Shown: positions 44,501 to 50,500 of the stretch, one piece after another | How the letters are laid out: each line of letters opens with the position of its first letter | Numbering within the stretch: position 1 is the stretch's first letter | Source of the DNA: Escherichia coli | GTDB taxonomy: Bacteria > Pseudomonadota > Gammaproteobacteria > Enterobacterales > Enterobacteriaceae | Length of the DNA: 64,000 nt | Assembly (NCBI RefSeq): GCF_013315695.1 | Contig: NZ_CP054353.1 | Direction: 5' to 3' (one strand) | Position numbers: made by a program

Positions 44501-47500
44501 GATGAAGCGGTACAGAAACGCGGTATGTCTCTGCCGATGTTCGGCAAATTAATGGCGACTAACGCAGCAGATATTTTCGGTCTGCAGCAAAAAGGCCGTA
44601 TCGCCCCAGGAAAAGATGCCGACTTCGTCTTCATTCAGCCGAATAGCAGCTATGTTCTTACCAATGACGATCTGGAATATCGCCACAAAGTCAGCCCGTA
44701 TGTTGGCCGTACCATTGGCGCGCGTGTCACGAAAACTATCTTACGTGGTGATGTGATTTACGACATTGAACAGGGCTTCCCTGTTGCGCCGAAAGGTCAA
44801 TTTATCCTTAAACATCAGCAGTAATCTGGCCCTGCAATGCCCGTCCTTGTGGCGGGCATTCTCCGGTTAAGGTGTGTTTATGTTCAATTTTGCAGTCAGC
44901 CGCGAAAGCCTGTTATCAGGATTTCAGTGGTTTTTCTTTATTTTTTGCAACACTGTTGTGGTTCCTCCTACGCTACTTTCTGCTTTTCAGTTGCCGCAAA
45001 GTAGCCTGCTTACGCTCACGCAATATGCTTTTCTTGCTACCGCACTGGCCTGCTTCGCTCAGGCGTTCTGCGGTCATCGCCGCGCTATTATGGAAGGGCC
45101 GGGTGGCCTGTGGTGGGGAACCATCCTGACTATCACCCTTGGCGAAGCATCGCGCGGGACACCGATCAACGATATCGCTACCAGTCTGGCGGTGGGGATT
45201 GCGCTCTCCGGCGTGCTGACGATGTTGATTGGTTTTAGCGGATTAGGCCATCGTCTGGCACGGTTATTTACGCCGTCGGTGATGGTCTTGTTTATGTTGA
45301 TGCTGGGTGCGCAACTGACCACTATCTTTTTCAAAGGTATGCTCGGGCTGCCGTTTGGCATAGCCGACCCGAATTTTAAAATTCAGTTACCGCCGTTCGC
45401 GCTCTCGGTGGCGGTGATGTGCCTGGTACTGGCGATGATTATCTTCCTGCCGCAACGTTTTGCCCGTTATGGCCTGCTGGTCGGTACGATAACCGGCTGG
45501 TTGTTGTGGTACTTTTGCTTTCCTTCTTCGCATTCGCTCTCCGGTGAGTTGCACTGGCAGTGGTTCCCGCTCGGCAGTGGCGGTGCTTTGTCGCCGGGGA
45601 TTATTCTGACGGCGGTGATTACAGGTCTGGTAAATATCAGCAATACCTACGGTGCGATTCGTGGCACGGATGTTTTTTATCCGCAACAGGGCGCGGGGAA
45701 TACGCGTTATCGTCGCAGCTTTGTGGCGACCGGATTTATGACGCTGATAACCGTGCCGCTGGCGGTAATTCCATTTTCACCGTTTGTTTCATCCATTGGT
45801 TTATTAACCCAGACTGGCGATTACACGCGACGATCGTTTATTTATGGCAGCGTTATTTGCCTGCTGGTGGCACTGGTTCCGGCACTCACACGACTGTTTT
45901 GCAGTATCCCTTTACCGGTGAGTAGCGCGGTCATGCTGGTTTCTTATCTGCCTTTACTCTTTTCCGCGCTGGTGTTTAGCCAGCAAATCACGTTTACCGC
46001 TCGCAATATTTATCGACTCGCATTGCCGTTATTTGTCGGCATATTTTTAATGGCATTACCGCCTGTGTATCTGCAAGACCTTCCATTAACGCTTCGTCCT
46101 CTGCTCAGTAACGGCTTACTGGTCGGAATTTTACTGGCTGTTCTTATGGATAATCTTATTCCGTGGGAACGCATCGAATAATTTGTTGAAAAAGGATTGA
46201 TAATGAAAATTGTCATTGCGCCAGACTCGTTTAAAGAGAGCTTAAGTGCAGAAAAATGTTGTCAGGCAATTAAAGCCGGGTTTTCGACCCTCTTTCCCGA
46301 TGCGCACTATATCTGTTTGCCGATAGCGGATGGCGGCGAAGGAACGGTGGATGCGATGGTCGCCGCGACGGGCGGCAACATCGTGACGCTTGAAGTCTGC
46401 GGGCCGATGGGCGAAACAGTGAATGCTTTTTATGGCCTTACCGGCGACGGGAAAACGGCGGTGATTGAGATGGCTGCGGCAAGCGGCCTGATGCTGGTCG
46501 CGCCTGAAAAGCGTAATCCGTTGCTGGCCTCCAGTTTTGGTACGGGGGAGTTAATTCGCCATGCGCTGGATAACGGCATTCGCCATATTATTCTCGGCAT
46601 TGGCGGCAGTGCGACGGTCGACGGCGGTATGGGCATGGCGCAGGCGCTCGGTGTGCGTTTCCTTGATGCCGACGGTCAGGTGCTGGCGGCTAACGGCGGC
46701 AATTTAGCGCGCGTGGCAAGCATTGAGATGAATGAATGCGATCCGCGTCTGGCGAACTGTCATATTGAAGTCGCATGTGACGTTGATAACCCGCTGGTAG
46801 GGGCACGCGGCGCGGCGGCGGTGTTTGGCCCGCAAAAAGGGGCAACGCCGGAGATGGTCGAAGAACTGGAACAGGGGCTGCAAAATTACGCCCGTGTTTT
46901 ACAACAGCTAACTGAAATCAACGTCTGCCAGATGGCGGGCGGTGGCGCGGCGGGCGGTATGGGCATTGCGGCGGAGGTATTCCTCAATGCGGATATTAAA
47001 CCGGGTATTGAGATTGTGTTGAATGCGGTCAATCTTGCGCAGGCGGTGCAGGGTGCAGCACTGGTGATCACCGGGGAAGGGCGCATCGATTCGCAAACGG
47101 CAGGTGGTAAAGCGCCGCTGGGCGTGGCGTCGGTGGCGAAGCAGTTTAATGTCCCGGTGATTGGGATTGCTGGCGTATTGGGTGATGGCGTGGAAGTGGT
47201 GCACCAGTACGGCATTGACGCGGTGTTCAGCATTTTGCCACGTCTGGCACCTTTAGCCGAAGTGCTCGCCAGCGGTGAAACCAATCTCTTCAACAGCGCA
47301 CGAAATATTGCCTGCGCCGGTGATGCTGCCAACTTACTGATTTAGTGTATGATGGTGTTTTTGAGGTGCTCCAGTGGCTTCTGTTTCTATCAGCTGTCCC
47401 TCCTGTTCAGCTACTGACGGGGTGGTGCGTAACGGCAAAAGCACCGCCGGACATCAGCGCTATCTCTGCTCTCACTGCCGTAAAACATGGCAACTGCAGT

Positions 47501-50500
47501 TCACTTACACCGCTTCTCAACCCGGTACGCACCAGAAAATCATTGATATGGCCATGAATGGCGTTGGATGCCGGGCAACAGCCCGCATTATGGGCGTTGG
47601 CCTCAACACGATTTTACGTCACTTAAAAAACTCAGGCCGCAGTCGGTAACCTCGCGCATACAGCCGGGCAGTGACGTCATCGTCTGCGCGGAAATGGACG
47701 AACAGTGGGGCTATGTCGGGGCTAAATCGCGCCAGCGCTGGCTGTTTTACGCGTATGACAGGCTCCGGAAGACGGTTGTTGCGCACGTATTCGGTGAACG
47801 CACTATGGCGACGCTGGGGCGTCTTATGAGCCTGCTGTCACCCTTTGACGTGGTGATATGGATGACGGATGGCTGGCCGCTGTATGAATCCCGCCTGAAG
47901 GGAAAGCTGCACGTAATCAGCAAGCGATATACGCAGCGAATTGAGCGGCATAACCTGAATCTGAGGCAGCACCTGGCACGGCTGGGACGGAAGTCGCTGT
48001 CGTTCTCAAAATCGGTGGAGCTGCATGACAAAGTCATCGGGCATTATCTGAACATAAAACACTATCAATAAGTTGGAGTCATTACCTAGATACCACAGGT
48101 TTCTGGCATGACGATTTTAATAACGCCACGCCGAACGATATTTGCGTGGCAATTCGTAGCGAAGCGGCGGATGCGGGGATCGCGCAGGCGGTTATGCAGC
48201 AGCTTGAAGAGGCGCTAAAACAACTGGCGCAGGGTTCAGGCAGCAGCCAGGCGTTGACGCAGGTGCGTCGCTGGGACAGTGCCTGTCAGAAATTACCCGA
48301 TGCCAGTCTGGCGCTGATTTCAGTGGCTGGTGAGTATGCGGCGGAGCTGGCGAACCAGGCGCTGGATCGCAACCTCAACGTGATGATGTTCTCCGATAAC
48401 GTCACGCTGGAAGATGAAATCCAACTTAAAACCCGCGCGCGGGAAAAAGGCTTGCTGGTGATGGGGCCGGACTGCGGTACATCGATGATTGCCGCCACGC
48501 CGCTGGCTTTTGCTAACGTGATGCCGGAAGGCAACATTGGCGTCATTGGCGCTTCCGGTACCGGGATTCAGGAGCTGTGCTCACAGATTGCGCTGGCAGG
48601 GGAGGGAATTACTCATGCGATTGGCCTTGGCGGGCGCGACCTCAGCCGTGAAGTGGGCGGCATCAGTGCGCTGACGGCGCTGGAAATGCTCAGTGCAGAC
48701 GAGAAAAGCGAAGTGCTGGCATTTGTTTCAAAACCACCTGCCGAAGCTGTGCGTCTGAAAATTGTTAATGCCATGAAAGCAACTGGCAAACCGACGGTGG
48801 CGCTGTTTTTAGGTTATACCCCGGCGGTGGCCCGCGACGAGAATGTCTGGTTTGCCTCCTCGCTGGATGAGGCCGCACGCCTGGCTTGTCTGCTTTCACG
48901 CGTCACTGCGCGACGTAACGCGATAGCGCCTGTCAGCAGCGGATTTATTTGCGGTTTGTATACCGGCGGTACGCTGGCTGCTGAAGCTGCGGGATTACTT
49001 GCCGGACACCTTGGCGTGGAAGCCGACGATACCCATCAACATGGCATGATGCTCGACGCCGACGGACATCAGATCCTCGACCTGGGCGATGATTTTTACA
49101 CCGTCGGGCGTCCCCATCCGATGATCGACCCGACCTTACGCAACCTGTTAATTGCCGATCTCGGCGCTAAACCGCAAGTGCGAGTGTTGCTGCTTGATGT
49201 GGTGATTGGCTTCGGTGCGACCGCCGATCCTGCCGCCTCGCTGGTGAGCGCCTGGCAAAAAGCCTGTGCCGCGCGTTCAGACAATCAACCACTGTATGCC
49301 ATTGCCACGGTGACAGGCACTGAACGTGACCCGCAATGCCGCTCGCAGCAAATCGCCACGCTGGAAGATGCGGGGATCGCGGTAGTGAGTTCGCTACCGG
49401 AAGCCACCTTGCTGGCTGCGGCGTTAATTCATCCGCTCTCGCCTGCCACACAGCAACACACACCGTCATTACTGGAAAACGTCGCCGTGATTAACATCGG
49501 ATTACGCAGCTTTGCGCTGGAGCTACAAAGCGCCAGCAAACCGGTTGTGCATTACCAATGGTCGCCAGTCGCCGGTGGCAATAAAAAACTGGCTCGTTTA
49601 TTAGAACGTTTGCAATAAGGGGTTCCCATGTTTACATCAGTGGCGCAAGCCAATGCTGCGGTTATCGAACAAATTCGTCGCGCTCGTCCACACTGGCTGG
49701 ATGTGCAACCGGCTTCTTCACTTATCAGCGAACTAAACAAGGGCAAAACACTGCTTCACGCCGGGCCGCCAATGCGCTGGCAGGAGATGACCGGACCCAT
49801 GAAAGGGGCGTGCGTGGGCGCATGTCTGTTCGAAGGCTGGGCGAAAGATGAAGCGCAGGCGCTGGCAATACTGGAGCAGGGGGAAGTGAACTTCATTCCT
49901 TGTCACCATGTGAATGCCGTCGGGCCAATGGGCGGCATTACTTCTGCCAGTATGCCGATGCTGGTGGTTGAGAACGTGACCGACGGCAACCGGGCGTACT
50001 GCAACCTCAACGAAGGTATCGGCAAAGTGATGCGTTTTGGCGCTTACGGCGAAGATGTCCTGACTCGCCATCGCTGGATGCGCGATGTGTTAATGCCAGT
50101 ATTAAGCGCGGCGCTGGGGCGCATGGAGCGCGGTATCGATCTCACCGCGATGATGGCACAGGGCATTACCATGGGCGATGAGTTCCATCAGCGCAACATT
50201 GCATCCTCAGCACTGTTGATGCGCGCGCTGGCCCCACAAATTGCTCGCCTCAATCACGATAAACAGCACATCGCGGAAGTGATGGATTTCCTCAGCGTGA
50301 CCGATCAGTTCTTCCTCAACCTCGCGATGGCTTACTGCAAGGCGGCGATGGATGCAGGCGCGATGATCCGCGCAGGCAGCATCGTCACGGCTATGACCCG
50401 CAACGGCAATATGTTCGGGATTCGGGTAAGCGGGCTGGGTGAACGCTGGTTTACTGCGCCTGTAAACACTCCGCAAGGTCTGTTTTTCACCGGCTTCTCG

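Follow-up and report, generated by a model that had tools for sequence, protein, structure and literature searches.

An IS1-associated deletion of allE, allC and allD in the allantoin cluster of an Escherichia coli chromosome

How did one Escherichia coli chromosome come to carry a clipped glxK and a headless fdrA on either side of an insertion sequence (IS), IS1, and what would this arrangement cost the strain? The locus lies in a stretch of 64,000 nucleotides (nt) from NCBI RefSeq assembly GCF_013315695.1, contig NZ_CP054353.1. This whole stretch is called the window, and its numbering is used throughout unless another locus is named. In E. coli K-12, and also in strains MS 21-1 and MSB1_4I, the gene order is glxK-allE-allC-allD-fdrA, as had been stated in an original prediction made from the DNA alone. 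That prediction proposed that an IS1 adjacent deletion had removed allE, allC and allD, and with them the anaerobic use of allantoin as a nitrogen source. It is close to certain that IS1 caused the deletion. We favor a two-step IS1 history, in which the second step was probably an intramolecular transposition event (adjacent deletion).

The element between the two damaged genes is a complete IS1 of the IS1A type (Table 1). Its left inverted repeat, GGTGATGCTGCCAACTTACTGAT, matches the reverse-complemented right repeat, GGTAATGACTCCAACTTATTGAT, at 18 of 23 positions, and the motif for the programmed -1 frameshift that joins insA to insB', TTAAAAAAC, is located near position 47622. The left inverted repeat occurs at two places in the window, 22817 and 47319, where none is expected from 100 shuffles. 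All 768 base pairs (bp) are identical to those of the other copy in the window, IS1 #1, and the element is also 100% identical to the RefSeq-annotated IS1A copy of MSB1_4I, whose transposase is annotated with a programmed frameshift. Length, inverted repeats and the insA-insB' frames are therefore those of IS1, and what is missing is a target-site duplication. A simple IS1 insertion is expected to create a duplication of 8-9 bp (PMC12428005). The flanks of this copy are instead GCCTGCGCC on the left and TAGATACCA on the right, just as the original prediction had written them. IS1 #1, with its 9-bp duplication, serves as an internal control for the appearance of an undisturbed IS1 insertion in the same genome. 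Since the same IS1 in MSB1_4I is flanked by the duplication GCCTGCGCC, its absence from the window reflects a later rearrangement and is not evidence against the identity of the element. IS1 #1 disrupts a hypothetical gene beside cueR (about 22676..23875, minus strand). Its absence from MSB1_4I indicates that IS1 was active in the window's strain after the split from MSB1_4I.

Both neighboring genes are damaged as predicted. The native codons of glxK stop at 372, and the reading frame continues into the IS1 end, so that the chimeric GlxK has 380 amino acids (aa) rather than 381 and carries the tail GDAANLLI in place of the nine native codons IKIGQGIKN. The Pfam Gly_kinase domain spans residues 3-373 of native GlxK, and all but its last residue is kept. 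The fdrA remnant lacks the first 45 codons and opens within codon 46, at its second base (nt 137). No in-frame codon resembling a start occurs before a GTG at 48146, and no Shine-Dalgarno-like sequence was found within 15 bases upstream of this GTG. A scan for the sigma-70 consensus on the plus strand near 48000-48200 found no fusion promoter created by the IS1 right end from which allGHK could be transcribed, and this candidate was rejected. When K-12 proteins were compared with the window by tblastn, GlxK residues 1-372 and FdrA residues 46-555 were recovered, whereas AllE, AllC and AllD were all absent from the 64 kb. An exact protein look-up returned no record of the 380-aa chimeric GlxK or of a 490-aa FdrA remnant.

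Alignment with K-12 MG1655 (locus L005) pairs window 34439..47318 with L005 2126..15004 and window 48087..57309 with L005 18817..28001, at about 97% identity. The K-12 segment that has no counterpart includes the last 30 nt of glxK, allE, allC, allD, the 317-bp allD-fdrA intergenic region and fdrA nt 1-136. The ALL cluster (b0504-b0521; 17 genes, allS to allK) is thus incomplete, with allE, allC and allD absent and fdrA (allF) truncated, and is otherwise collinear with K-12. The deletion measures 3,715 bp relative to the IS-free locus of MS 21-1, 3,724 bp relative to the IS1-bearing locus of MSB1_4I and 3,812 bp in K-12 coordinates. The size of about 3.5 kb given in the original prediction was somewhat too small; the figure from the close relatives is 3.7 kb.

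Those relatives also provide the earlier states of the locus. The right flank of the window is 100.0% identical to three complete E. coli genomes, and the loci of two of them, MS 21-1 and MSB1_4I, were read. These matches led to the rejection of Shigella or some other species as the source, which an identity of only about 97% in a first comparison had suggested; that value reflected segments 3.7 kb apart that had not been joined and the divergent all-cluster allele of this lineage. In MS 21-1, both flanks are 99.95-99.98% identical to the window and glxK-allE-allC-allD-fdrA is intact and free of insertion sequences. In MSB1_4I, both flanks are 99.98-100% identical and allE-allC-allD-fdrA is intact, and an IS1A that agrees with the window's in orientation and, to the base, in position sits in glxK between two copies of GCCTGCGCC. 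Window 35811..48086, which includes the IS1, is collinear with MSB1_4I with 3 mismatches in 12,276 bp. The alignment resumes at MSB1_4I locus position 16001, from which window 48087..64000 runs with 0 mismatches in 15,914 bp. IS1 ends at locus position 12276 of MSB1_4I, and the missing stretch is 12277..16000. In other words, a progenitor state with intact flanks exists in MSB1_4I, and the deletion begins at the terminal base of IS1 while the element and its other flank are unchanged. This series of IS-free, IS1-inserted and IS1-plus-deletion states supports the proposal of an IS1-mediated deletion, and the alignment to references with an intact cluster that had been suggested as a check shows the full cluster in both relatives and a window without 3.7 kb. 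Because MSB1_4I carries IS1 alone at the identical base and in the identical orientation, the events occurred in the order of insertion and then deletion, and both are recent. Among 5,426 complete E. coli genomes, the left junction (glxK-IS1) is shared only with MSB1_4I, and the right junction (IS1-fdrA nt 137) is found in none.

Could the junction instead be a product of assembly, in which two different IS1 copies were merged or wrongly connected while the strain in fact retains allE-allC-allD? Multi-copy repeats such as IS1, with identical copies of 768 bp, are a classical source of mis-joins. However, a mis-join here would need an IS1 at fdrA nt 137, which is present in no close relative, and the left junction is confirmed in MSB1_4I. 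The right junction recurs as well. A look-up of the 474-aa FdrA remnant identified four contigs, only one of which (L009) has the window's junction. This 32.5-kb contig from a short-read metagenome (ENA assembly ERZ27238783) opens with 111 nt from the right end of IS1 and continues through the identical junction, ...CATTACC followed directly by TAGATACCACAGG, into fdrA nt 137. The contig differs from the window by one single-nucleotide polymorphism in 5,643 bp, which marks it as an independent data set. We consider an assembly artefact very unlikely. It is at least as improbable that glxK and fdrA are naturally adjacent in this lineage, which the original prediction had named as an observation that would contradict it, or that IS1 and the deletion arrived in one step. 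For some IS movements at deletion centres that lack duplications, a single-step origin has been proposed (PMC11708052). In contrast, same-lineage genomes carry allC, the MS 21-1 and MSB1_4I loci have the full allE-allC-allD-fdrA arrangement, and the solitary IS1 of MSB1_4I at exactly the same base and orientation shows that insertion preceded deletion. In five complete genomes of the same lineage, allC matches the MS 21-1 query at 100% identity.

The question that carries more uncertainty is how the second step took place. In the history that we favor, IS1A first entered the last codons of glxK, duplicating GCCTGCGCC and altering only the 9-residue tail of GlxK, which is the state preserved in MSB1_4I. 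Subsequently, we infer, the right end of IS1 attacked TAGATACCA, 3.7 kb away at fdrA nt 137-145; the product of this step is what the window contains. The chromosome would have kept IS1, and the intervening segment, presumably released as a non-replicating circle, would have taken with it the right copy of GCCTGCGCC, the glxK end, the glxK-allE spacer, the three all genes, the allD-allF control region and the start of fdrA. Adjacent deletion is favored because the resident element is retained, one flank is unchanged, the break lies at the IS terminus and the duplication is lost. A pre-existing IS at one end together with a lost target duplication is the accepted signature of such deletions (PMC11708052). 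Two other copies have exactly the sequence of this intact IS1, and one of them is newly inserted in the window's strain, which indicates that IS1 is active in this lineage. Alternatively, a second direct IS1 may have inserted at fdrA, duplicating TAGATACCA, after which a RecA-dependent crossover between the 768-bp repeats removed the interval. Several points weigh against our account. The recombination route would leave an identical product sequence, and simple IS1 insertions in the same part of fdrA exist (RM9088, B19695, STEC2018-553). On the functional side, the growth defect discussed below is inferred from published genetics, and the search for other copies of allC, allD and allE covered the 64 kb of the window only. 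Recombination also gains from the recurrence of IS1 at the 5' end of fdrA, where insertions with 9-bp duplications are found at nt 68-76, 128-136 and 160-168 (the last in both orientations), and an IS1 end lies no more than about 1 kb from the window's fdrA break point in at least 58 of the 5,426 genomes. All IS1 copies seen in the lineage are identical and thus would be good recombination substrates, and IS-IS recombination is named as a frequent cause of missing duplications (PMC11708052). On the other hand, this route requires one extra event, and none of the 5,426 complete genomes has both IS1 copies; MSB1_4I, the only one with the left junction, has an intact fdrA. Recombination is therefore a possible route, though a less probable one than adjacent deletion. 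The term used in the original prediction, adjacent deletion, is well founded in that an IS1-associated deletion starts at the IS1 end, whereas the transposition route it implies is not distinguishable in the product from recombination between two IS1 copies. Microhomology or replication slippage was also considered and rejected, as the break coincides to the base with the IS1 terminus, and the IS1 end has only about 3 nt in common with the sequence that precedes the fdrA break point.

The consequences of the deletion can be predicted from published work. AllB, AllC and AllE convert allantoin to ureidoglycolate, with AllC and AllE being the sole route from allantoate, and AllD, AllFGH (fdrA-ylbE-ylbF) and AllK (ybcF) form the oxamate branch, which yields adenosine triphosphate (PMC12535856). 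AllS activates the allD operon (allDCE) and the allF operon (allFGHK, which is fdrA-ylbE-ylbF-ybcF) from a shared divergent control region, and a delta-allS mutant grows poorly on allantoin and uses up hardly any of it (PMC12535856). Because the deletion takes out allDCE and the entire AllS/ArcA control region, together with 45 codons at the start of allF, both known AllS-dependent operons are expected to be dead, which would leave AllS without known targets. The original prediction that AllS has no target operon was right about allDCE but understated the loss, which extends to the allF promoter and 45 codons of allF. Its claim that the allantoate-to-ureidoglycolate step is missing without AllC agrees with the published pathway (PMC12535856), and both AllC and AllE are absent from the window.

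If the pathway operates as published, the strain would have no enzyme for the conversion of allantoate via ureidoglycine to ureidoglycolate, and neither AllD nor AllF. The allGHK genes would be left without a promoter and AllA without a source of substrate. AllW and AllB would still import allantoin and open its ring to give allantoate, which would be a dead end, and the glyoxylate branch (gcl-hyi-glxR-glxK) would be retained. GlxK is reported to activate AllB through direct binding (PMC10163214). Anaerobic growth on allantoin as a nitrogen source should be lost. Of the complete genomes, 5,343 (98.5%) carry allC, with one or at most two matching places each, and the five closest relatives each have it as a single copy. 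The near-universal presence of allC makes its loss rare in the species, and the low number of places per genome makes a second copy elsewhere unlikely.

The rest of the cluster is preserved. As had been claimed, allB, allA, allS and allR are all intact reading frames, and the stretch from allA to ybbY (36765..46181) is 99.98% identical to MSB1_4I. Over 12.3 kb, the window and MSB1_4I differ by only three substitutions, each of which changes an amino acid in an all-cluster gene. GlxK A258E (window 46975) is derived in the window, while AllS P163L and AllB G99D (matching window 36048 and 43710) are derived in MSB1_4I. Relaxed selection cannot be inferred from so small a number. The allantoin cluster of the window (34439..57309) is a divergent allele that is only about 97% identical to K-12 and most E. 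coli, and an allC at least 99% identical to the allele of this lineage occurs in only 5 of the 5,426 genomes.

Table 1. Features of the deletion junction, the retained cluster genes and IS1 events in other strains. Coordinates are those of the window, except for the named comparison strains, for which they are those of K-12 locus L005.
Feature	Coordinates	Strand	Remarks
Complete IS1 (IS1A type), 768 bp	47319..48086	+	inverted repeats 47319..47341 and 48064..48086
insA	47374..47649	+	open reading frame call, 91 aa
insB' frame	47568..48071	+	open reading frame call, 167 aa
GCCTGCGCC	47310..47318	.	remaining left copy of the 9-bp duplication from IS1 entry into glxK; MSB1_4I has both copies
TAGATACCA	48087..48095	.	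fdrA nt 137-145, abuts IS1 right end; deletion end point, presumed transposition target
Chimeric glxK	46203..47345	+	372 native codons (46203..47318), then 8 IS1-encoded codons and stop (47343..47345)
fdrA (allF) remnant, codons 46-555	48087..49618	+	no promoter, ribosome-binding site or start codon
IS1 #1, simple insertion	22817..23584	+	9-bp duplication TGAATCATT; absent from MSB1_4I
allS	35609..36535	-	intact, 308 codons; activator; both known target promoters deleted
allA	36765..37247	+	intact open reading frame
allR	37325..38140	+	intact open reading frame
gcl	38230..40011	+	intact open reading frame
hyi	40024..40800	+	intact open reading frame
glxR	40900..41778	+	intact open reading frame
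allW	41948..43402	+	intact open reading frame
allB	43463..44824	+	intact open reading frame
ybbY	44880..46181	+	intact open reading frame
ylbE (allG)	49628..50887	+	intact; AllS/ArcA-dependent promoter lost
ylbF (allH)	50898..51713	+	intact; AllS/ArcA-dependent promoter lost
ybcF (allK)	51710..52603	+	intact; AllS/ArcA-dependent promoter lost
ET846	left junction 15177; right junction 18714		deletion
Ec1120	left junction 15063; right junction 18760		deletion
600029	left junction 15234; right junction 18780		deletion
W21	left junction 9388; right junction 18730		deletion
Ec-RL2-1X	left junction 9420; right junction 18774		deletion
MRE162	left junction 18393; right junction 18787		deletion
CUPF09	left junction 17105; right junction 18826		deletion
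HL15	left junction 8564; right junction 18823		deletion
STEC409	left junction 1378; right junction 18591		deletion
B19695	duplicated 9-mer 18748-56		simple insertion, 9-bp duplication
STEC2018-553	duplicated 9-mer 18808-16		simple insertion, 9-bp duplication
RM9088 and 2017.02.04CC	duplicated 9-mer 18840-48		simple insertions in opposite orientations, 9-bp duplication
TUM9812	duplicated 9-mer 18591-99		simple insertion, 9-bp duplication

IS1 prefers AT-rich DNA, and allDCE is flanked by two AT-rich valleys, at whose edges the two end points of the deletion are located. The guanine-plus-cytosine fraction is 0.36-0.39 at the glxK end and spacer and 0.27-0.44 across the allD-fdrA control region and fdrA nt 1-135, and it is 0.53-0.62 just beyond. 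The right-hand valley has been reached by IS1 in other strains. In unrelated strains, at least ten independent deletions associated with IS1, together with five simple insertions, place an IS1 end in the stretch that runs from 90 nt upstream of the fdrA start to fdrA nt 168 (Table 1). In STEC2018-553, a second, inverted IS1 has ybbP on its far side, and the rest of the all cluster up to L005 18634 is lost. Within about 1 kb of the break, the IS1 end facing fdrA is the right end in at least 23 genomes and the left end in at least 35. An orientation bias that might have given a clue to the direction of deletion was sought in these counts, and none was found. If at least 58,000 chromosomal IS1 copies were spread uniformly, about 12 such cases would be expected, which gives a four- to five-fold excess. 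This is a crude figure, given the non-independence of the genomes and counts that are lower bounds.

Several further observations concern this zone. IS1 junctions cluster in L005 18591..18848 (loci L013-L023), and six independent junctions, including that of the window, fall within 18808-18828. The same 9-mer has been hit in both orientations in unrelated strains at 18840-48 (RM9088 and 2017.02.04CC) and at 18591-99 (TUM9812 and STEC409). The same lineage allele of fdrA abuts an IS1 right end at nt 148 in one contig (L011; Logan SRR28811239, 1..30) and at nt 174 in another (L010; ENA ERZ28667311, 1..60). As neither contig is assembled on its left side, these two may represent stepwise extensions of the same deletion, further deletions or separate simple insertions. 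Decay of the pathway goes further in other strains with an IS1 at fdrA. W21 has a frameshifted allS (L013 541..1466) and lacks glxR through allD, and in RM9088 allC contains an internal stop and ybcF a frameshift (L017 3842..5077 and 11001..11886). In the river water strain 1008S19, allC is interrupted by a simple IS1 insertion of separate origin, flanked by a 9-bp duplication (L001 6171..6938; L005 17047-17055), and fdrA has an internal stop. The allC insertion constitutes another independent inactivation of the pathway.

A far-reaching reading of these patterns is that the glxK-allE spacer and the AllS/ArcA control region with the first ~170 nt of fdrA are true IS1 hot spots, that the AllS regulon is among the most IS1-fragile loci of E. 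coli, and that its repeated loss is convergent and selected for in some gut lineages. The presence of three IS1-fdrA junctions (nt 137, 148 and 174) in one rare lineage and the decay of the pathway in other IS1-hit strains point in this direction, although we regard the proposal as tentative and rather unlikely.

Nine strains, ET846, Ec1120, 600029, W21, Ec-RL2-1X, CUPF09, HL15, STEC409 and STEC2018-553, resemble the window in having an IS1 end in the allD-fdrA control region or the first 146 nt of fdrA and in lacking allDCE wholly or partly. In three of them (ET846, Ec1120 and 600029), the other deletion end also lies just after glxK. Unlike the window, however, the nine have different junctions, orientations and backgrounds, their IS1 isoforms are 94.5-99.9% identical to the window's IS1, and neither junction of the window is shared.

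Deletions of this type have a long history. Reif and Saedler reportedly described IS1-promoted adjacent deletions in the gal region of E. coli K-12 in 1975. In those classical cases, as in the window, the resident IS1 stays, the deletion runs from the IS1 terminus to a new target and one copy of the duplication is lost. The gal deletions were obtained by laboratory selection, whereas the window comes from a natural isolate whose IS1-bearing progenitor state is kept in a sequenced sister strain. IS1-related large deletions around nfsB are said to cause nitrofurantoin heteroresistance (Wan and colleagues, 2023). Both these and the present deletion are IS1-anchored chromosomal losses of a dispensable metabolic locus in E. 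coli, although the nfsB deletions in clinical E. coli are drug-selected and the all deletion has no known selective agent. In the long-term evolution experiment, all 14 IS-associated deletions that were analysed follow the same two-step pattern of insertion and then IS-adjacent deletion with no target duplication left, and such deletions may extend further over time (PMC11708052). That system involves the IS3 family and an order of events seen in a time series, whereas the element here is IS1 and the order is deduced from sister genomes.

Allantoin catabolism genes are also degraded in host-adapted Salmonella serovars, mostly by point pseudogenes. These serovars and the window's strain share a loss of the allantoin pathway through gene inactivation, predicted in the latter case from an IS1 deletion and in a different species. 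A link to the niche of the window's strain is speculative.

The window contains one further feature unrelated to the deletion. A giant repetitive adhesin gene (375..18734, plus strand), annotated in MSB1_4I as siiEA/BapA-related, encodes 6,119 aa, against 6,818 aa for the allele of MSB1_4I; the difference of 699 aa resembles a contraction of repeats. Type I secretion genes lie beside it at 18738..20896 and 20893..22068, and the gene for the secretion ABC/permease is broken into two reading frames (18738..19403 and 19400..20896); the MSB1_4I annotation marks this gene as frameshifted.

None of the papers searched describes this deletion. Both the mechanism and the pathway are well known, and the deletion is a new instance of an ordinary, well-understood event that leaves the current understanding of IS1 and of the allantoin pathway unchanged. 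Its value is as a clean natural example of a two-step IS1 history in which the IS-free, IS1-inserted and IS1-plus-deletion states have all been sequenced. The recurrence of IS1 ends in a stretch of ~250 bp may be useful for studies of IS target choice or of the population biology of purine-allantoin nitrogen scavenging. For this human-gut lineage of E. coli, the deletion predicts a metabolic defect in which the anaerobic use of allantoin nitrogen would be lost, the oxamate branch would be gone, allantoate would be a dead end, and AllS and AllA would be orphaned.

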